In this document: in pieces, positions 3,076-33,986 of the stretch
Layout: the number at the start of each line of letters is the position of its first letter
Numbering within the stretch: position 1 is the first letter of the stretch
Source of the DNA: Candidatus Tagabacteria bacterium
GTDB taxonomy: Bacteria > Patescibacteriota > Minisyncoccia > GCA-002779875
Length of the DNA stretch: 64,000 nucleotides
Reading direction: 5' to 3'
Assembly: GCA_963820595.1 (NCBI GenBank)
Contig: CAWGAO010000005.1
Location: 3,853 to 67,852 of the forward strand
Position numbers and translations under genes: made by a program
The notes under the pieces: generated by a model
Seen by the model: only the letters and a program-made list of their open reading frames with translations
Told to the model about the DNA's origin: nothing
Database searches by the model: none

Positions 3076-4224
3076 ATGTATAGCCATATGAAAAAAATTT
3101 TACTTTTGCTAAGTCTGTGTGCGATTTTTTTTCCTGCCTCGTCATTTGCTGCTTATTTTAAGACGGGCAGCGGCGTGTTCGTAAACTCGTCGGAAACAAT
3201 ACGGGATAATGTCTACGTTGTAGGCGGAAACGTAGCCGTCTCAAGCGCGATAGACGGAGATATTTTTGCGGCAGGCAGCATGCTTTTCATTTCCGGCAAA
3301 GAGAATGGGGATATTACGGCGGTCGGCGGAACCGTAAATATTGCCGGCGCATCGGCTGAAGACATCCGTCTTATCGGAGGAAACGTGACCATAGGAGGAA
3401 ATTTTAGCGGCGAAGTCATGGTAATCGGAGGGCAAATTATGGTTACGCCGGATACGCAAATCAAGAAAGATTCGCATATAATCGGGGGAATGCTCAGTTT
3501 TAGCGGGAACGCATCGGGCAATTTATCCATGTCGGGCGGGACGATATACATAAACGGCACCATTGAAAAAAATTTGACGATCAAAACCGCAAAAAAAGTG
3601 GTAATCGGTTCAGGCGCGGTGATAAAAGGCAATTTGGAATATTCCGCCCTCTCGGAAGCTTCCATTGAAGAGGGTGCGCAAATACTCGGGATTACCACAT
3701 TTCACAAAATAGAAAAGGCGGGCGCCGGCAGAAATTCCGGTGCTGTGTTCGGATTTTTATTCGGATTATTCGCCTTGTCGTATTTAATTAAATTATTATT
3801 GATTCTTACTGCCACTTATCTTCTGTGGTATATCTGGAGAAAGGATTCGGCTGATATCGTTCGGTTGGCAAAATCGCATTTCGGCCATTCTCTTTTCCGG
3901 GGATTTGTTTTTCTCGTCGCCGTGCCGGCGGCGGCCATTATATCTCTTGTCACCGTTATCGGGGCGTTCGCCGGATTATTCGGCCTTCTGCTCTATGCGG
4001 CAATTCTTATTCTTGCCGTTCCGGTTGCGGTGTTGCTCGCAGCTTCTTTACTTATGAAAAATAGGGCTGATTTCAAGTGGTTCCATATTCTTCTCGGCGC
4101 GGTAGTGTTAATGGCGGTAAACATAATTCCTTTCGTTGGCTGGATTGCCGCGCTAATTGTGTATCTTGCCGCGTTGGGAGCACTGCTTGGCGTTTTACGG
4201 CCCAAATTCCAGCGTTCCGCCTGA
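3076..4224 (+). CDS. membrane protein with signal peptide, bactofilin-like (polymer-forming) beta-helical repeats and a C-terminal multi-TM region
   Basis: N-terminal MKKILLLLSLCAIFFPASSFA. Repeated G-x-V/I-x-I-x-G units (GDITAVGGTVNIAG, IRLIGGNVTIGG, VMVIGGQIMV). Four to five C-terminal hydrophobic helices. Confidence 0.45.
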   Translation: MYSHMKKILLLLSLCAIFFPASSFAAYFKTGSGVFVNSSETIRDNVYVVGGNVAVSSAIDGDIFAAGSMLFISGKENGDITAVGGTVNIAGASAEDIRLIGGNVTIGGNFSGEVMVIGGQIMVTPDTQIKKDSHIIGGMLSFSGNASGNLSMSGGTIYINGTIEKNLTIKTAKKVVIGSGAVIKGNLEYSALSEASIEEGAQILGITTFHKIEKAGAGRNSGAVFGFLFGLFALSYLIKLLLILTATYLLWYIWRKDSADIVRLAKSHFGHSLFRGFVFLVAVPAAAIISLVTVIGAFAGLFGLLLYAAILILAVPVAVLLAASLLMKNRADFKWFHILLGAVVLMAVNIIPFVGWIAALIVYLAALGALLGVLRPKFQRSA

Positions 4225-16269: not shown

Positions 16270-16614
16270 TGGAGATGGCGAGATTTGAACTCGCGTCAAG
16301 AAGTTAAATGCATTATCGTCTACAAGCTTGTTTCGGTTGAATAAGATTGCGGTTAGAACCGAAAGAAAAACGCAAAATTTTTCCTTCTTTTTAGTCGCTC
16401 TATATCGAAGGTTTATAGAGTCTAGCCCGATAATGACGTCTCGGTCTTTCTATCGTGCATCAAAAGAGAGACGGCTTTTGCTTAAATTTTAAGCAAAAGC
16501 GTAAGCAGGTTGATTCACTGCATTTACATTTGTTGAACGGATTTTAAAGAGGTAACCGATCATCCTCTGCCTGCGAATAACGCATTTTGACTCCCTTCGA
16601 AGCCTTTCATCCCC
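16270..16614 (-). ncRNA. ssrA: tmRNA (SsrA)
   Basis: 5' end GGGGAUGAAAGGCUUCGAAGGG, 3' end GACGCGAGUUCAAAUCUCGCCAUCUCCA. The acceptor stem has a G3:U pair. Tag ORF GCA GUG AAU CAA CCU GCU UAC GCU UUU GCU UAA encodes AVNQPAYAFA*. A helix (GCUUUUGCUUAAA/UUUAAGCAAAAGC) spans the stop. It lies next to smpB. Confidence 0.85.
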
Positions 16615-16657: not shown

Positions 16658-17101
16658 CTACTCTGTTTTCAATTCTCTTTCAATTTTTCTCTTCGCTTCT
16701 CTTTCTTTCATTCGCTCGCGCTTGTCGTATTTTTTAAGTCCGCGGCAAACTCCGAAAGAAAGCTTTAAAAAACCTTTTTTAATATACATCGCAAGGGGTA
16801 TCAAAGTCAAGCCTTGCTGCTGGCTTTTACCGCCTAAATACGAGATTTCTTTCTTGCTGAGGAGTAATCGGCGGGTGCGCAGGGAGTCGTAATCACTTGG
16901 CGTGTTTGCGGCTTGGTAGGGTGGAATGTCTATACCGACAACATAAGCCTCGCCGCCCCGGATGATGACTCGGCTTCCGACAAGGGACCCGCGTCCGTTT
17001 TTCAGGGCTTTTACTTCGAATCCTTTCAATTCCAAGCCCGCCTCGAACTTCTCGAGGATTTCGTAGTCGTGATATGCTTTTCGATTCTCGATAAGTGCCA
17101 T
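16658..17101 (-). CDS. smpB: SsrA-binding protein
   Basis: MALIENRKAYHDYEILEKFEAGLELKGFEVK is a canonical SmpB N-terminus. Confidence 0.95.
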   Translation of the reverse strand: MALIENRKAYHDYEILEKFEAGLELKGFEVKALKNGRGSLVGSRVIIRGGEAYVVGIDIPPYQAANTPSDYDSLRTRRLLLSKKEISYLGGKSQQQGLTLIPLAMYIKKGFLKLSFGVCRGLKKYDKRERMKEREAKRKIERELKTE

Positions 17102-17179
17102 TTTCTAAATACTATCATATCTTGTTTTCCATTCAATTTGTATTTTCAAAAGATTTTTTACGTTGTATTATTAAATAAT

Positions 17180-17506
17180 CATGAAGAATTCGAATACGAA
17201 GGAGAAAAATATCAAATAGACGCTTCGAAAAGAGTTGATGGCGGCGGAGATTTAGATCTGGCTACCAAAACTATTTTGGTGGATAAGGATGTCCCGGAGA
17301 AATTCCACGAGGGAATTGCGGTACACGAAATCGAAGAAAGAAAATACCTTTTGAAGGGGCATAGCTATGTGTATTCCCATAATGAAGCGCAGAAAAAAGA
17401 GCTTGAATTTTATGAAAAAGTTTACGGAAAAGACAAAGGAGTGCAAACGCTTGAAGAAGAGGAGATCTCTCGTTTTAACCATTACCCGCCGGCATTCTTC
17501 CCCTAA
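17180..17506 (+). CDS. hypothetical protein, tandem paralog 1 (start unclear or frameshifted)
   Basis: EFEYEGEKYQIDASKR..ILVDKDVPEKFHEGIAVHEIEERKYL. ATG 17181 is +1 relative to the ORF frame. An in-frame TTG is at 17138. Confidence 0.35.
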   Translation, partial: HEEFEYEGEKYQIDASKRVDGGGDLDLATKTILVDKDVPEKFHEGIAVHEIEERKYLLKGHSYVYSHNEAQKKELEFYEKVYGKDKGVQTLEEEEISRFNHYPPAFFP

Positions 17507-17579
17507 TTCGAGAAAGAGCAAGATAATCAAGGCGGAGGAAGAATCGCAAGAAGTTTCGAACAACGTTTTTCAAATTGAG

Positions 17580-17975
17580 ATGCGAACGGTGCCGGAGGTA
17601 GCTTTTGAGGGGAGGCAGTATATTATTGACCATAGCGAAAGATTGATAGGTACGCTGGTAGACGTTTATGAAAACGGAAAAGTAATTTATATTGACCGCG
17701 ATGTGCCGGAAAGATTTTTTGAAGGGCTTGCATTGAGCGAGTTAGTCACAAGAAAATTTTTAAAAAAAGGCATGGGTTGGTCTGAGGCGAGTGATGAGGC
17801 CAATAGAGCGGAAAAAGATTACTACGTTTCAAAATACGGCCCAGCCGAAGGTGCGGAGCTTTTTAATGACGAATTAAAATTCCAAGCTTGGAAATTTGAG
17901 CAGGAGAAAAAGGAACTGAAAGAAGAAGGCGGCCACAAAGTTATTTACGAAAAGGGTGAGATTTTGCCGAAATAA
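17580..17975 (+). CDS. hypothetical protein, tandem paralog 2
   Basis: MRTVPEVAFEGRQYIIDHSERL..IYIDRDVPERFFEGLALSELVTRKFL shares its motif order with paralog 1. Confidence 0.4.
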   Translation: MRTVPEVAFEGRQYIIDHSERLIGTLVDVYENGKVIYIDRDVPERFFEGLALSELVTRKFLKKGMGWSEASDEANRAEKDYYVSKYGPAEGAELFNDELKFQAWKFEQEKKELKEEGGHKVIYEKGEILPK

Positions 17976-18321: not shown

Positions 18322-18531
18322 TTTCTAAGGTGGGCGACCCCGCACAAATTTTGCGGGATAAATTAATGGCAGACCGCTGCGCCCAAAAAGGATGAAGCTA
18401 TTCGCTTCCCGCGGTCTGCGAGAGCAAAAATTTATTATTTTATTAAAGGTTTAATTTATAGCGTGAGGGGGTGGCAAAATTTGAGCGGGGTGCTCATTTT
18501 TGCGACTACTCGCTGACGCTTGCAGGCAAAA
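18322..18531 (+). repeat. modular palindromic intergenic element, copy I (secE-nusG gap)
   Basis: Outer stem is GACCCCGCACAAATTTTGC (18336-18354) paired with GGCAAAATTTGAGCGGGGTG (18473-18492). Inner stem is GCAGACCGC/GCGGTCTGC (18369-18377/18411-18419). An M'-like tail (CTCATTTTTGCGACTACTCGCT...) runs to ATG 18532. Confidence 0.85.
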
Positions 18532-19078
18532 ATGGCAAAACAAACATCGGAATTCGGGAGAAATTGGTACGCGGTGCATACCTACGCCGGTTACGAAGAT
18601 GCGGTTGCGCGCAATTTGAAGCAGCGCATCGAATCTTTGGGAATGGAAGACAAGATTTTTAACGTCTTGGTTCCTACCGAAAAGAAAATCCGTATTAAAG
18701 GAGGAAAGCGGAGAACGGTGGAAGAAAAAGTTTATCCCGGCTATGTTCTCGTTGAAATGATAGTCGCCGACGACTCCTGGTATATCGTGCGAAACACTCC
18801 TAGAGTTACTGGTTTCGTCGGTTCGGGCACTACGCCCATACCTCTCCAGAAAGAAGAGGTGGATATGTTGTTTCAGCGGATGGGAGCCAAAGAGCCGAAA
18901 TACAAGTTCGATATCGCGAGTCGGCGATACGGCCAGAATTTTTGACGGACCATTTAAGGATTTCGAAGGAAAAGTACACGCAATTGACGAAGAGCGCGGA
19001 AAGATAAAGGTTCTGGTTTCAATATTCGGCCGGGAGACGCCGGTTGAATTGGACTTTTTGCAGGTGAAAAAGATTTAG
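18532..19078 (+). pseudogene. nusG: transcription termination/antitermination factor NusG, one frameshift near 18925
   Basis: MAKQTSEFGRNWYAVHTYAGYE (NGN domain) runs to 18945. The KOW part, [52 protein letters not shown], is in another frame and ends with TAG at 19076-19078. Confidence 0.85.
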
Positions 19079-27091: not shown

Positions 27092-27747
27092 CTAAGCCTC
27101 CGAGTTGTTTTTTTGTCGGATGCCCCGCAGAAATTCAATAATAGCGGGCAGGATTGAAATGATAATGATAGCGAAAATAACCAAAGAAAAATTTTGTTTG
27201 ATTAGCGGAATATTTCCGAAATAATATCCGCCGAAAATGAAAAGCGCCGGCCAGGTTATGCCGCCAATAATATTGTAGCTGATGAAACGCCAATAACTCA
27301 TTTGTCCGATGCCCGCGACAAACGGCGCGAAAGTGCGGATAATAGGAATGAAGCGGGCGATAATAATCGTTTTTCCGCCGTGTTTTTCATAAAATTGATG
27401 GGTGCGCTCCAGATATTTCTTATTTAAAAAACGGAGATTTTCTTCTGTGAGAATATTTTCGGGCCGACAAAACGGCCTAGCCAATAATTTACAGTGTCGC
27501 CCAAAACAGCCGCGAGAGCCAAAATAATGAAAAGCCAAACTACATTGAAAGAGCCGACGGCCGCGAAAGCGCCGGCGGCAAAAAGGATGGAATCGCCCGG
27601 CAGAAACGGAATTACAACCAGTCCGGTTTCGCAGAAAATAATCAGAAAAAGAAGCGAATAAGTCCAAGCCCCGTATATTTGAATAATCGCGCCCAAGTGT
27701 TTGTCGAGATGGAGTGCAAAACTGATAATCGTTTTTATTAAATCCAT
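27092..27747 (-). pseudogene. dedA: DedA family membrane protein, one frameshift near 27435
   Basis: The N-terminal fragment 27424-27747 (..[22 protein letters not shown]..) and the C-terminal fragment ([35 protein letters not shown]..) are in different frames. Confidence 0.8.
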
Positions 27748-28483: not shown

Positions 28484-31400
28484 ATGCAAGGAAAGGAGGA
28501 AAAATTAAGTTTTCCCGAGCGGGAAGAGAAGATTTTGGAGTTCTGGAAAAAGAACAAGATTTTTGAAAAATCCGTTGAGCAGAGGAAGGGCGAAAAAGAA
28601 ATTCGTTTTTTACGAAGGCCCGCCGACGGCCAACGGCCAGCCAGGCATTCACAGCATGGAAGCGCGTGTTTTTAAAGATATTGTTTTGCGCTATAAAGCA
28701 ATGCGGGGATTTTATTGCAAGCGAAAAGCCGGCTGGGACACCCACGGTTTGCCCGTAGAAATCCAGGTTGAAAAAGAACTTGGTTTAAAAAATAAAAAAG
28801 AAATTGAGGAATATGGCATTGAAAAATTTATAGAGAAATGCAAGGAAAGCGTTTGGCGTTACAGGAATGAGTGGGAAAATACTGACATACCGGATGGCTT
28901 ACTGGCTGGATATGAAAAACGCTTACGCGACAATGACGAACGATTACATCGAAACTCTTTGGTGGATTTTCAAAGAGATCGACAAGCGAAAATTGCTTTA
29001 CGAGGATTATAAAATCGTTCCTTGGTGTCCGCGTTGCGGAACCGCTCTTTCTTCGCACGAGGTCAGCCAGGGTTATCGCAAAATAAAAGAAGATTCCGTT
29101 TATATAAAATTTCCCGTGAAAGGAAGACCGAATACTTATTTTTTGGTTTGGACAACTACGCCCTGGACATTGCCGTCCAATGTTGCTTTGGCGATAAATC
29201 CCAAAATAACGTATACCATAATCGAAAAAGACGGACGAGCGCTTGATTTTGGCGAAAAATCGCCTTTCCGTTATCGATGGTGAATACAGGATTGGCGAAG
29301 AAAAACCGGGAACTGATTTAATCGGCAGAGAGTATGACCCCTTATACTCGCGGAGCGCTTAACCCAGACCAAGTCGAGGGGCTTATAAAATTTATGCCGC
29401 GGATTTTGTTTCCGCTGACGACGGCACGGGTATTGTCCATATTGCTCCGGCTTTCGGCGAAGACGATATGAAACTGGGCAAAGCGAATAATCTCCCGGTT
29501 TTAAGTCTTGTCGACGAAGAAGGAAAAATGCTGACGCCGAATTACAAATGGAACGGAATGTTTATCAAAGACGCCGACCCGTTGATTGTCGAAGATTTGC
29601 GCCAAAGAAATCTTCTTTATAAAACCGAAAGCTACGAGCATGATTATCCTTTTTGCTGGCGCTGCGACAGTCCTTTGATGTATTATGCCAAAACTTCCTG
29701 GTGGCTGAAGACAACAGGCGTAAAACAGCAGATGATTAAGGAAAATAAAAAAATTCACTGGCACCCGGATTATTTGAAAGACGGCCGTTTCGGCGAATGG
29801 CTGAACGAGTTGCGGGATTGGGCGATTTCGCGCGAGCGTTATTGGGGAACGCCGCTTCCGATATGGCGATGTCCTGATTGCAAGCGTTACGAAGTTATCG
29901 GCTCAAGAGAAGAGTTGAAGAAAAAAACCGTGAAATCGGGAAACAATTATTTTTTGATGAGGCATGGATTTTCGGAAGCCAATCAGAAAAATATCAATAA
30001 TTCAAATATCGAAACAAATCATTACAAACTGACTCCAAAAGGCAAAAAAGAAGTTTTGAAAGCGGCCCAAAAATTGAAAGAAGCAAAAAATAGATTTGAT
30101 TTTCTCCTCCGATTTTTTGAGAACAAAGGAAACGGCGCTGTTGGCGGCTGAAACTTTGGGCATTCCAGAAAAGGATGTTGTTTTTGACGAACGATTGCGC
30201 GAAATAAATACGGGAATTTTCGACGGAAAATCCCGCGCCGAATATCACAAATATTTTTCTTCGCTTCTGGAAAAATTCACCAAAACCCCGCCTCAAGGCG
30301 AAAATTTAACCGAATTGAAAAATCGCATCACGCAGTTTTTGTATGAAATAGAAAATAAGTACAAAGGTAAAAACATTTTGATTGTCAGCCATGAATATCC
30401 GATTTGGATGTTAACTGCGGGAGCAAAAGGAATGACTAACGAGGAAGCGGTGGCGACTAAAGGGGAAAAAAGACGATTTTATTAAAACAGCCGAAGTTAT
30501 GAAACTGGATTTTACGCCTTTGCCTCATGACAAGAATTTTGTTTTGGATTTTCACCGGCCATATATAGATAAAATCATATTGAAATGCGACAAATGCGGC
30601 GGCGACATGATTCGCATTAAAGATGTTTGTGATGTTTGGTTTGATTCCGGTTCGATGCCGTTCGCCCAAAATCACTTTCCATTTTCTATCCCTAAAAAAA
30701 ATTTACTCTATCCGGCGGACTATATTTGTGAAGCGATTGACCAGACAAGAGGGTGGTTTTATACGCTGCTTGCGGTTGCGATTTTGTTGGGACGAAAAGC
30801 GCCTTATAAAAACGTGCTTTCTTTGGGTTTGGTTTTGGACGCCGAGGGGCAAAAAATGTCAAAATCGCGCGGCAACGTGGTGGTGCCAGGAGAATTGATG
30901 AACAAATACGGCGCCGATGCGGTGCGCTGGTATTTTTATACCATCAATCAGCCGTGGGACGAAAAATTATTTAAAGAGGAGGATGTCCAGGCGGCTTTGC
31001 GAAGATTTATTTTGATTTTTTGGAATTGCTTTTCCTATTGGAAAATGTACGCGGGTAAAAATTTTAAAATCAATCCGCCAGCTGGCGGACCCAAATTGGT
31101 TATCAATAAATGGCTGCTGGCGAAATTTAATCAAATTGCCTTAGAAGTTCCCAAATTACTCGATAATTACGATATCGTTTCAGCGGCGCGGTTGATAGAA
31201 GATTTTGTAATTGAAGATATCTCTCATTGGTATATTCGCCGCATGCGCGGAAATAACTGAAAAATTCCGGTTCCCGAGAAGCCAAAGAAATAAATGCGGT
31301 TTTGGGCCAAGTGATTATGGACACAGCAAAATTACTTGCGCCGTTTATGCCTTTTGTTTCAGAAACGGTTTACCGGGAAACGGGCGGGAAAAAGAAAAGC

Positions 31401-31947
31401 ATTCATTTGGAGAATTTCCCGACGGTCCAAAAATCCTGACGGTAAAAGAAAAACAGCTTTTAAAGAAAATGGAGAAGCGTGAGAGATGACGTTTCCCAGA
31501 GCATTGGAGGTAAGGGCAAGAGCGGGGATAAAAGTGAGACAGCCGTTGTCGGAAATGGCTACCAAAATCAAAAATCCTAAAATTGAAAACTGGGCAAGAG
31601 ATTATTAGATTGACGAGGAGAGGCGAATTTCAAAAAGATCGTTTTCGACAAGAATTTAAAGATGAAATAAAAATTAACACCGATGATCACTGAAGAATTG
31701 AAAGAAGAAGGAATTTTGCGGGATTTAATCCGTCAATTTCAGGATATCCGCAAAAAAGAAGGCCGTAAGCCCAATGAAATGCTGATTTTTTACGTTGCCG
31801 TCGATGTGAAAGGAAAAGAATTTTTGATTAAATATGCAAAAGAATCTGAAAAAGGCGATTAGCGCGAAATCCATCGTGGTCCGCGCCAACATTGAAGATG
31901 GATACGAAGTCAAAGCGGGAGAATTGAATTTTAAGGTCAAATTATGA
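28484..31947 (+). pseudogene. ileS: isoleucyl-tRNA synthetase with an inserted histidine-phosphatase domain, at least 7 frameshifts
   Basis: Fragments are 28484 ([21 protein letters not shown]), 28563-29012 ([12 protein letters not shown]), 28867-29283, 29468-30151, 30096-30485 and 30499-31260 (KMSKSRGN). The tail pieces end at TGA 31945-31947. Confidence 0.9.
29925..30495 (+). other. histidine phosphatase (PGAM-superfamily) domain embedded in ileS
   Basis: [12 protein letters not shown] (RHGxxxxN), [24 protein letters not shown] and LIVSHEYPI. It lies between the IleRS motifs [18 protein letters not shown] and DFHRPYIDKIILKCDKCGG. Confidence 0.75.
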
Positions 31948-32686
31948 ACTTTTTCGAAGATATCAAAAAGCAGATAGAGCAGGATAAACTATTTTTAATC
32001 GCTTATTACGGGGCTTCGACGACCAGCGCGGAGTATTGTTTTCCGAATTGGGGAGAAATAATCAGATATGTTTTGAAAGACACCTTGGAAGAGAGTATGG
32101 GTGTTTACAAAAAGGCGTACTGGGATTTACAGACGATGAATATTGGGCTCAATGGCGCCTTTTCCGCAGATTTACTGGAAAGATTTGATTTTTGGGTTTT
32201 GGACAAAAATCCAAACTTGATTTTTTTAAACGTGGGCAAAAATGACCCTTATCACAATATAGACAAAGAAATTATCGAGAAAAATACTAAAACAATAATT
32301 GAAAAAGCCCTGGAAAAGAACATAAAAGTAGTTTTTACCAATAATATCCCGTCATTGCGAGATGATTTAAATAAAAAGAGTTATTGATTATACCAAAGTA
32401 GACCAAGAAGTCGCGGAATATTTTAACGGGAATAAAAATTTTATTTTTGTTGATTTGTTCAATATTTTCCCAAAAGAGTTGATAAAGAGATCTTATACGC
32501 TTATTGCAGAAGAAAATAAGGATGTCGGAGTTAAAGAAGGGAGAAATAGATCCCATACATTATAACAGATACGGGAACGCGATAGTGGCAAAGATTTTAC
32601 TGAAAAAAGTTTTCAGCGTAGATTTTGATGAAGAAAAATTTTTAGAAGATTTGGCAAATCCGATCGTGAAATGGCCGCGTTATTAA
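31944..32686 (+). pseudogene. SGNH/GDSL-like hydrolase, frameshifted
   Basis: The N-terminal part is 31944-32387 (LIAYYGASTT.., NVGKNDP). The C-terminal part is 32504-32686 and carries a DPIHYN (DxxH) motif. The segments between are in another frame. Confidence 0.5.
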
Positions 32687-32713
32687 CGCATGATATATCG
32701 TGATATTTAATCT

Positions 32714-33313
32714 ATGAAACGCGTTTTTATAATTCACGGCTGGGGGAAACATCCGGAAGAAGGATGGTATCCATGGCTCAAAAAAGAATTAGAAAAAAAC
32801 GGCTTTGAAGTTTTTGTTCCGGCAATGCCGAATACGGATGAACCGAAAATTAATGAATGGGTAGATTTTCTCTCAAATTTAGTCGGCGAACCGGATGAAA
32901 ATACTTATTTTGTTGGGCATAGCATAGGTTGCCAAGCGATTTTACGCTATTTGGAAAAAGTAATGAATAAAAAAGTTGGCGGCGCGATATTCGTATCAGG
33001 ATGGTTTAATTTGAGCGAGTATTCTTTTAAGGAAGACCCACTAAATGAGGAAGAATCGAGAAATATCGCCAAACCTTGGTTAGAAACGCCTATAAATTTT
33101 GAAGAAGTAAAAAAGACCACGAATAATTTTGTTGCTATTTTTTCCGATAGTGATCCTTATGTGCCGATTGAAGATAAAAATATTTTTAAAGAAAAATTAG
33201 GCGCAGAAATTATTATCGAACACAATAAAGGGCATTTCGATAGCAGCGACGGTGTAATAGAATTACCCAGCGCCCTTAATTCATTATTTAAAATGAGTAC
33301 AAGAAAAACTTAG
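32714..33313 (+). CDS. alpha/beta hydrolase (YdeN/RBBP9-like serine hydrolase)
   Basis: VFIIHGWG.., nucleophile elbow GHSIGC, and a C-terminal GHF motif. Confidence 0.7.
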   Translation: MKRVFIIHGWGKHPEEGWYPWLKKELEKNGFEVFVPAMPNTDEPKINEWVDFLSNLVGEPDENTYFVGHSIGCQAILRYLEKVMNKKVGGAIFVSGWFNLSEYSFKEDPLNEEESRNIAKPWLETPINFEEVKKTTNNFVAIFSDSDPYVPIEDKNIFKEKLGAEIIIEHNKGHFDSSDGVIELPSALNSLFKMSTRKT

Positions 33314-33314
33314 G

Positions 33315-33986
33315 ATGATGATAAAAAATAACAAAGAAAAAAATATTTTTGTTTTTGGAGATAGCTGCGTGCAGGGATTTTGGGACAGCCGAGGCGGTTG
33401 GGCTACAAGACTCAAACAATATTTTGATGCTTTAATGGTTTCAGCCCCTAAATTTCCTCACCACGGTTTTTATTATATGGTTTATCCTCTTGGTATAACT
33501 GATGATACTACTAGAAGCATTCTGGAAAGATTTGAGTTTGAAGTGGAAAAAAGAATGGTGTGGGGAACTACTGAAGAAATACTTATTTTTTCTATAGGCG
33601 GAAATGATACAGCTATTTTAGATATGAACGAATTCAGAAGGAATATCAGGGACATAATTAAGCGCGCGAAGAGATTTTCGGATGAAATAGCTTTTTTGGA
33701 GATTGAACCAGTTGATGAAAAATTTACTCAGCCCGTCCCGTGGGATAGTAGATTTTATTACAATAATAAAAAGATCGCCGAATTCAACAAACTTCTTAAC
33801 GAATTAGCAGAGGAAAATAATATTAAAATAATCGGGCTTTTTGAAGAATGGAAGAAAATTAATTATACCAAACTGCTTGCCGATGGAGTACATCCGAATG
33901 ACGCAGGGCATGAGTATATTTTTGAAAAAGTTAAAAGTTTCCTGATTAAAAATTATTTTAAAAATTTCAAAATAAAAAATATTTAA
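33315..33986 (+). CDS. SGNH/GDSL family hydrolase
   Basis: Block I FVFGDSCVQG, GGND, and block V DGVHPNDAGH. Confidence 0.7.
   Translation: MMIKNNKEKNIFVFGDSCVQGFWDSRGGWATRLKQYFDALMVSAPKFPHHGFYYMVYPLGITDDTTRSILERFEFEVEKRMVWGTTEEILIFSIGGNDTAILDMNEFRRNIRDIIKRAKRFSDEIAFLEIEPVDEKFTQPVPWDSRFYYNNKKIAEFNKLLNELAEENNIKIIGLFEEWKKINYTKLLADGVHPNDAGHEYIFEKVKSFLIKNYFKNFKIKNI

Follow-up and report, generated by a model that had tools for sequence, protein, structure and literature searches.

The 64,000-nt stretch of Candidatus Tagabacteria DNA analyzed here (contig CAWGAO010000005.1 of assembly GCA_963820595.1, positions 3,853 to 67,852; the whole stretch is called the window) raises the question of whether a bacterial isoleucyl-tRNA synthetase (IleRS) carries a second, unrelated enzyme inside its own catalytic domain. 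An initial annotation of the window had proposed that a histidine phosphatase domain is inserted in frame between two IleRS segments. The ileS gene is broken into many open reading frames (ORFs) in this assembly, and the same sequence might be taken for a phosphatase gene that divides ileS. [quoted passage not shown]

The synthetase gene and its landmarks in the window are as follows:

28484..31947, + strand, ileS, type-2 isoleucyl-tRNA synthetase gene (three-frame translation, and tblastn against intact relatives)
28641..28655, + strand, HIGH-equivalent motif, reading PGIHS where relatives have PGIHH
29870..29881, + strand, CPDC, the first CxxC in the zinc knuckle of CP3, shortly 5′ of the insert, aligning to the C461/C464 region of Thermus thermophilus IleRS
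30586..30597, + strand, CDKC, the second CxxC in the zinc knuckle of CP3, shortly 3′ of the insert
30853..30867, + strand, KMSKS signature of the IleRS catalytic domain, intact

In three-frame translation, the reading frame cycles 2, 0, 1, 2 along the gene. Approximately 18 single-base insertions or deletions (indels) break 28484-31947 in this assembly, most of them +1 in A runs and a few in C4 or G4 runs or outside homopolymers. Twelve single-base edits, modeled explicitly, gave one continuous frame from 28484 to approximately 31605; approximately six further indels, all within the final 400 nt, were identified by eye, and the conceptual product after repair is approximately 1151 aa long. The stop codon overlaps the ATG of the next gene at 31944. 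The CP1 editing motifs, including WTTTPWTLP, were found in the repaired protein, and its middle part matches the Pfam family tRNA-synt_1 (E = 7.5e-60). Both IleRS segments quoted in the initial annotation were recovered: frame 2 carries the IleRS core up to 29926, and frame 1 resumes IleRS from approximately 30547 and extends through KMSKS into the anticodon-binding domain.

Between these segments lie the phosphatase and the two frameshifts that interrupt it:

29927..30543, + strand, histidine phosphatase domain (His_Phos_1, branch 1; Pfam PF00300) with short linkers, nested in IleRS CP3
29960..29968, + strand, RHG motif with the catalytic Arg and the phospho-accepting His (read from the sequence)
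30085..30090, + strand, A6 run at which the insert shifts from frame 2 to frame 0; deletion of one A restores the frame
30120..30122, + strand, second catalytic Arg, in FLRTKET
30300..30302, + strand, catalytic Glu, proton donor, in GEN of GENLTELKNR, frame 0
30390..30392, + strand, second catalytic His, in VSHE of LIVSHEYPIW, frame 0
30466..30471, + strand, frameshift near the distal end of the insert, A6 run, frame 0 to frame 1; deletion of one A repairs it

On the repaired insert, PF00300 scored 120.9 bits against a gathering cutoff of 21.7 (E = 7.1e-35), with a match spanning profile positions 2-166 of 194 and an envelope of approximately 29951-30449; the phosphatase assignment thus held under a hidden Markov model (HMM) search, and the four motifs quoted for it (RHG, FLRTKET, GEN, and SHE) are all present. 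Once one A is deleted from each A6 run, Pfam places tRNA-synt_1 on both sides of His_Phos_1. Without repair, an HMM of the family matches two ORF fragments, 29363-30148 and 30078-30482. ORF 29468-30151 passes from the IleRS core into the RHG motif with no correction, as had been claimed. A single 1-nt correction had been thought sufficient for the rest; the correction in the distal A6 run stands, but the frameshift at 30085-30090 had been missed, and the insert needs two. Relatives read KIDLIF in frame at 30085-30090 and ...DFIKTGE..LDF.P.PHN in frame at 30466-30471. The insert is also somewhat larger than the 190 codons ending at 30495 first described: approximately 205 codons, to approximately 30543, separate the two IleRS segments, and the domain itself comprises approximately 200 residues. 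It lies between the two CxxC pairs of CP3, approximately 100 residues before KMSKS. Its flanks align to residues ...482 and 488... of T. thermophilus IleRS (1ILE), so that approximately 200 residues replace a loop of approximately 5-11 residues, for which the initial annotation had given approximately 15. CP3 of Thermus IleRS bears a zinc motif, and CP3 topology varies among IleRSs and tolerates insertions (PMC7191050).

The architecture is not confined to the window. A homology search with a 272-aa query composed of junction, insert, and junction retrieved several proteins of Patescibacteria in which a single ORF spans the entire query and contains both PF00133 and PF00300. Two full-length members of their clusters have the domain order tRNA-synt_1, His_Phos_1, tRNA-synt_1, Anticodon_1, DUF5915 in a single ORF: P0121, of 1162 aa, and P0124, of 1193 aa, which is encoded on a 220-kb contig of the NCBI metagenome-assembled genome GCA_041643315.1. 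P0124 scored 903.8 bits on the NCBIfam ileS equivalog TIGR00392 (cutoff 621.4). When 1.84 billion cluster representatives (clusters at 50% identity) were scanned exhaustively with HMMER, 207 had E < 1e-30, and among the best 150 of these 207, most match the query from position 1 to 272 as one unbroken alignment. In more than 100 protein clusters, the whole region lies in proteins of 1100-1275 aa, in many of them at residues 450-750 approximately. The insert lies within a single uninterrupted ORF in at least 22 GTDB species-representative genomes; these ORFs are 1063-1487 aa long, and a few of them are truncated by the end of the contig. Fused loci are labeled Minisyncoccia, Paceibacteria, Yanofskybacteria, Spechtbacterales, Peregrinibacteria/Peribacteria, Saccharibacteria, generic Patescibacteria, or simply "bacterium"; among the taxonomically labeled carriers listed, the single non-CPR label is an uncultured gammaproteobacterium, and all others are CPR/Patescibacteria. 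The closest IleRS relatives of the window protein (62-63% identity) include one from a Candidatus Niyogibacteria metagenome-assembled genome; they come from a search with the IleRS flanks minus the insert, whose matches were all partial representatives of less than 700 aa. Approximately 55 short-loop ileS loci were among the matches listed, nearly all of them non-CPR (Clostridia, Bacilli, Actinomycetota, and others), and no His_Phos ORF was found within 4 kb of ileS in those insert-less loci. The survey of related CPR genomes thus bore out the initial annotation on its main point: relatives read through both junctions in one ORF, with the domain in frame inside IleRS and not as a separate gene.

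Two variants of the fused form were observed. Two Peribacteria/Peregrinibacteria loci (L024 2483-6898 and L025 2453-6913) encode IleRSs of 1472 and 1487 aa, in which a tandem pair of His_Phos domains occupies the same point of CP3; RHG, R, E, and H are kept in both copies, and the HRPYID/zinc-knuckle segment is partly replaced. A 1395-aa fused IleRS (P0264) has an extra segment of approximately 190 aa, resembling a P-loop NTPase or kinase, between WFESGSMPYA and FHPADFIAEG; it contains GACGAGKTT and matches AAA_18, AAA_33, and Zeta_toxin at E values of 1e-5 to 1e-7. A kinase and a phosphatase in one aminoacyl-tRNA synthetase (aaRS) recall end-healing enzymes, but P0264 is a single case.

If the phosphatase were a separate gene dividing ileS into two or three ORFs, the read-through would be an artefact of repair. 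Several ORFs are indeed called at the locus in the window and in two related contigs (L001 and L002), one of them beginning near the start of the phosphatase, and many database proteins of approximately 650-690 aa begin near the RHG motif. However, the N-terminal junction is in frame within the window itself (ORF 29468-30151), and both junctions are read through in at least 22 genomes and more than 100 cluster representatives. The L001 and L002 contigs are full of frameshifts in other genes as well, and a close relative of L001 (P0001/P0121) reads through. The 650-690-aa entries are truncated calls, with scattered starts, often with no first β-strand or no Met, and one of them begins with the adaptor-derived MCIRDR. 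Relatives show no conserved stop and start signals at the junctions of the kind that a naturally split aaRS would have; there are at least 22 continuous ORFs, and most of the top 150 cluster representatives span both junctions. Because continuous ORFs recur in relatives, we rejected both the separate gene, which we regard as exceedingly improbable, and an assembly chimera, the architecture being present in independent datasets. An intein or other mobile element was also ruled out: the His_Phos fold accounts for the whole insert, the catalytic residues are conserved, and the diversity looks vertical.

In many database entries, P0171 among them, the gene is interrupted at the N-terminal insert junction or close to it. 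A lysine-rich (poly-A) linker, or paralogy with standalone copies of the domain, may make this junction a frequent point of failure in assembly or gene calling.

With a single polypeptide established for the family, the state of the window copy itself has to be considered. A decaying pseudogene, with an insert that has no current function in this organism, would be consistent with approximately 18 indels in 3.46 kb next to stretches (34-50 kb of the window) that have long intact ORFs, and with the change of H to S in the HIGH-equivalent motif. Against decay, the disruptions are almost all length errors of one base, most of them in homopolymers, and no substitution-type stop codons were seen. 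The repaired 1151-aa protein has five mismatches at the 178 columns that are at least 90% conserved in 46 intact fused IleRSs, which is the family median. Indel damage also affects other genes of the window (L11, NusG, and DedA), and comparable contigs of relatives carry the same type of error. In addition, ileS occupies a syntenic housekeeping position, as in relatives (L20, IF3, SmpB/tmRNA, argS ... ileS ... recO). We infer that the window gene is the housekeeping ileS and that its indels are assembly errors, because conservation is at the family median, stop substitutions are absent, other genes are damaged, and the neighborhood is conserved; a pseudogene is very unlikely. One of the five mismatches, H57S in the HIGH-equivalent motif, where all relatives have His, weighs against this conclusion: PGIHS, if real rather than an assembly error, could impair this copy of ileS.

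The damage elsewhere in the window is patchy, and 34-50 kb is clean. On the - strand, the gene for L11 (19151-19570) has an aberrant C-terminus, that for NusG (18520-18945) is apparently truncated, and a DedA-family gene (27092-27747) is split into two overlapping ORFs.

A separate line of evidence comes from a standalone version of the same domain. The 272-aa query also matched many Patescibacteria proteins of approximately 190 aa that are 40-50% identical to the insert. The seven standalone homologues whose loci were examined (P0025, P0066, P0060, P0069, P0099, P0115, and P0081) are all encoded directly upstream of ileS, which they overlap by 4-10 nt or from which they are at most 14 nt away, and the ileS beside each of them is insert-less (939-975 aa). 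The usual order at these split loci is argS, phosphatase, ileS, a small ORF in some cases, and recO; in two fused genomes (L003 and L002), ileS follows argS with no standalone phosphatase gene between them. A scan of the 64-kb window with the family HMM found no standalone copy. The spacing between the motifs that flank the insertion point in CP3 is 72-78 residues in operon-type IleRSs and 270-284 in fused ones.

Operon-type IleRSs fall into at least three body groups (subtypes), each with fused relatives. Thus, L087 is nearest to the fused L003 and L004 (54-55%), L092 is nearest to the fused L010 (55%), and the L084 group shares the subtype WGLALPIFEC...DVGNPWLDAG with the fused P0263. Both arrangements, split and embedded, are found in each of three IleRS subtypes, and the association of phosphatase and IleRS therefore appears to have been kept through repeated switches of gene arrangement. 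A distance-based comparison of the domains gave no resolution of the ancestral state, embedded or standalone. The alternation of split and embedded states, together with the domain fusion, ties the phosphatase functionally to IleRS and argues strongly, on comparative grounds, for a joint action of the two.

The phosphatase family was also found with one other partner. In two independent datasets (L096 619-1758 and L097 589-1728), it forms the C-terminal part of a fusion with Sua5/YrdC, the threonylcarbamoyl-AMP synthase that acts in t6A formation, and there it occupies the position usual for the SUA5 domain of Sua5 proteins. In L096, a gene for a CCA-adding enzyme with an HD motif (3154-3981) lies 1.4 kb downstream of the fusion. 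Apparent fusions to adenylate kinase (P0103) and OTCase (P0027) proved partial or spurious on rescanning and were discarded.

The catalytic residues are almost perfectly conserved in both forms of the domain. The Arg and His of RHG are invariant in the 99 embedded domains and present in 101 of 104 standalone ones, the other three being gaps. The second Arg is present in 98 of the 99 embedded domains and in all 104 standalone ones, the Glu in 97 of 99 (the other two being gaps) and 103 of 104, and the second His in 99 of 99 and 102 of 104. None of these residues (RHG Arg and His, second Arg, Glu, and second His) varies in a set of 23 diverse fused sequences. From the conservation of the four catalytic residues, the domain is presumably active as an enzyme. 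A non-catalytic module, structural or ligand-sensing, that modulates IleRS would be compatible with CP3 being structurally variable and tolerant of insertions in IleRS (PMC7191050), but the full catalytic set has been conserved over approximately 200 diverse sequences at a mean pairwise identity of 34-46%, and the tandem-domain IleRSs keep it in both copies. We consider such a module highly improbable.

The AlphaFold model of P0124 (pLDDT 89.8, pTM 0.87) has the expected α/β pattern in the insert region, at pLDDT 85-97, and its body matches the type-2 IleRS structures 8c8u (TM score 0.84) and 1ile (0.85). The model of the standalone P0025 (pLDDT 95.4) matches the phosphoserine phosphatase PspA and PhoE at TM scores of approximately 0.75-0.77, and its secondary structure retains the cap region. 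By its profile matches, the insert is a branch-1 histidine phosphatase that does not test as dPGM, CobC, or SixA, and it reached no NCBIfam equivalog cutoff. The best dPGM model, dPGM_arch (NF038349), gave 86 bits against 225, and other dPGM models scored far lower. In dPGM the second His is followed by the specific motif HGNS.R; the family has SHEYPIW or SHGDPLW in place of HGNSLR. The α-ribazole phosphatase CobC (TIGR03162) gave 77.3 bits against a cutoff of 162.9, the RNase H/acid phosphatase model NF005567 gave 84 bits against 326, and SixA (TIGR00249) gave 31.3 bits against 74.5 (E = 1.6e-7), with only the N-terminal 70 residues aligned.

Leaving the substrate aside, we consider it highly probable, from the comparisons of sequence and gene order, that the fused IleRS contains an active phosphatase that works in physical association with the synthetase and has been kept by selection through the switches of arrangement. 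The phosphatase would work tethered to IleRS in the embedded form or as a co-translated partner in the operon form. As to what it acts on, we tentatively suggest, as our leading guess, that it may remove a phosphomonoester from an RNA ligand held by IleRS, such as a 2′/3′-terminal phosphate blocking the tRNA(Ile) acceptor end; we do not go so far as to call this probable. Removal of such a phosphate from tRNA(Ile) would make IleRS a repair-and-charge unit. That the nested phosphatase heals phosphate-blocked tRNA(Ile) ends, or takes off some other tRNA-borne phosphate, immediately before charging is possible but doubtful. In the sister lineages, a basic free-standing partner co-translated with IleRS would do the same job.

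The charge of the two forms bears on this proposal. Six of the seven standalone proteins have a net charge of +8 to +14 per 100 aa (neighboring IleRSs, 0 to 3.6; ArgRSs, 3 to 7), and embedded inserts average +0.7 per 100 aa, like the IleRS body. A basic standalone protein fits an affinity of its own for polyanions, and an embedded domain fits the borrowing of tRNA binding from IleRS. The fusion to Sua5/YrdC, with a CCA-adding enzyme gene nearby, is a second link to tRNA metabolism and leans the same way. Three points weigh against an RNA substrate. No histidine phosphatase with activity on RNA ends is known to us; the charge pattern has exceptions, the standalone L093 having a net charge of +2 (+1.0 per 100 aa) and the embedded L010 reaching +10.6 per 100 aa; and the nearest solved structures are all small-molecule phosphatases (PspA, PhoE, riboflavin-pathway HFP, GpgP, CobC, and dPGM; TM scores 0.73-0.78).

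The last point favors a different substrate, namely a small molecule of adenylate chemistry (AMP, pyrophosphate, a terminal nucleotide phosphate, or a nucleotide-like 5′-phosphate). Hydrolysis of this molecule would draw the activation step forward or police it, and the use of the tether would lie in co-expression or local clearance. The nearest relatives in both sequence and structure (PspA, PhoE, riboflavin-pathway HFP, GpgP, and CobC) act on small molecules, and both confirmed fusion partners, IleRS and Sua5/YrdC, form an acyl-adenylate and release pyrophosphate. However, a diffusible substrate gives little reason for nesting in one aaRS or for a strict coupling in translation to ileS and to no other aaRS gene, and it leaves the strong positive charge of most standalone forms unexplained; hydrolysis of AMP would presumably also waste a salvaged nucleotide. 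We rate a small-molecule substrate as conceivable and rather unlikely.

Protein-directed activities arose several times in the histidine phosphatase superfamily. A protein phosphatase comparable to SixA, PGAM5, or Sts-1 might strip an inhibitory phosphate, for example one placed by a HipA-like kinase toxin, from IleRS or from another translation factor. The weak match to the SixA model, below its cutoff, and the location of the insert in the catalytic domain so shortly before KMSKS are in keeping with this role, but no kinase partner was seen at the seven standalone-phosphatase loci examined, SixA-type enzymes are without the cap region that this domain keeps, and the best matches of the domain are metabolite phosphatases. 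A protein substrate is improbable; a minor share of the probability goes to some function other than those considered here.

Several other features of the window were recorded. A tmRNA gene on the - strand (16270-16614; tag AVNQPAYAFA) adjoins smpB (16658-17101) and is the only tRNA-like gene in the 64 kb. Directly 3′ of ileS, 31944-33986 contains three hydrolase genes (GDSL-like and apparently frameshifted, Ser_hydrolase, and GDSL-like); this stretch is low in GC (0.34 vs. approximately 0.42), and relatives have only a small ORF between ileS and recO. Two overlapping or adjacent ORFs, 16913-17506 and 17367-17975, have a common repeated motif (DKDVPEKFHEGIAVHEIEERKYL and DRDVPERFFEGLALSELVTRKFL) and resemble tandem paralogues, possibly joined or split by a frameshift.

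Across much of CPR/Patescibacteria, the fusion places an unrelated enzyme, catalytically intact as judged by its residues, within the very domain with which an essential synthetase performs its catalysis, and the operon-encoded split version links phosphatase and IleRS independently. Few enzymes have been studied as intensively as the aaRSs. To our knowledge, extra catalytic domains in bacterial aaRSs are rare and are usually editing modules. The association points to a step in the handling of tRNA(Ile), isoleucine, or adenylate that is absent from textbook translation, in minimal genomes with few dispensable functions. If tRNA-end healing were true, this would be the first RNA-directed histidine phosphatase and the first aaRS with a built-in tRNA-repair activity. 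There is also a practical consequence: gene fragments are labeled automatically as "histidine phosphatase family protein" or PhoE, and metabolic reconstructions of CPR could miscount phosphoglycerate mutase or similar enzymes.

Full-text searches of the searchable literature found no paper on a histidine phosphatase in or beside IleRS, in agreement with the initial annotation, which knew of no described aaRS with this domain; a 2026 preprint on IleRS-wide domain evolution makes no mention of a phosphatase insert. The fused sequences are abundant in public databases under automatic names.

Compared with known systems, the synthetase part resembles type-2 IleRSs (T. thermophilus 1ILE and Priestia megaterium IleRS2, 8C8U) in its Rossmann fold, CP1 (WTTTPWTLP and DGTGIVH.AP), CP3 zinc knuckle, KMSKS, anticodon-binding domain, and DUF5915 C-terminus; it differs from them by approximately 200 extra residues, an independent enzyme fold, between the CP3 CxxC pairs. 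The phosphatase part shares its fold and the R-H, R, E, H set with the branch-1 group of PhoE, PspA, GpgP, and CobC (best PDB entries 4ij5/4ij6, 1h2e, 9mmh, 4pz9, and 6e4b), but it is only 22-28% identical to these enzymes, it is embedded in or operon-coupled to an aaRS, and most of its standalone forms are unusually basic. A branch-1 phosphatase joined to a nucleic-acid enzyme has a precedent in the RNase HI/CobC-like acid phosphatase of the Mycobacterium tuberculosis Rv2228c type (NF005567, the second-best NCBIfam match of the insert, E = 1.2e-23). That fusion is end-to-end and its partner is RNase H, whereas the IleRS phosphatase is nested and its partner is an aaRS. An IleRS with an added enzymatic domain also has a curated precedent, ileS_w_GNAT (NF040702); there the addition is an N-acetyltransferase (GNAT) and not His_Phos, and P0124, at 321 bits against a cutoff of 1999, is not a member. 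The HD domain of the Escherichia coli CCA-adding enzyme has 2′,3′-cyclic phosphodiesterase, 2′-nucleotidase, and phosphatase activities. A tRNA 3′-end enzyme with a phosphatase of its own for clearing blocked ends, as in our leading guess, is alike in logic only, the HD fold and the host being unrelated. The host is thus an ordinary type-2 IleRS and the guest an ordinary histidine phosphatase fold; it is their combination that is new.

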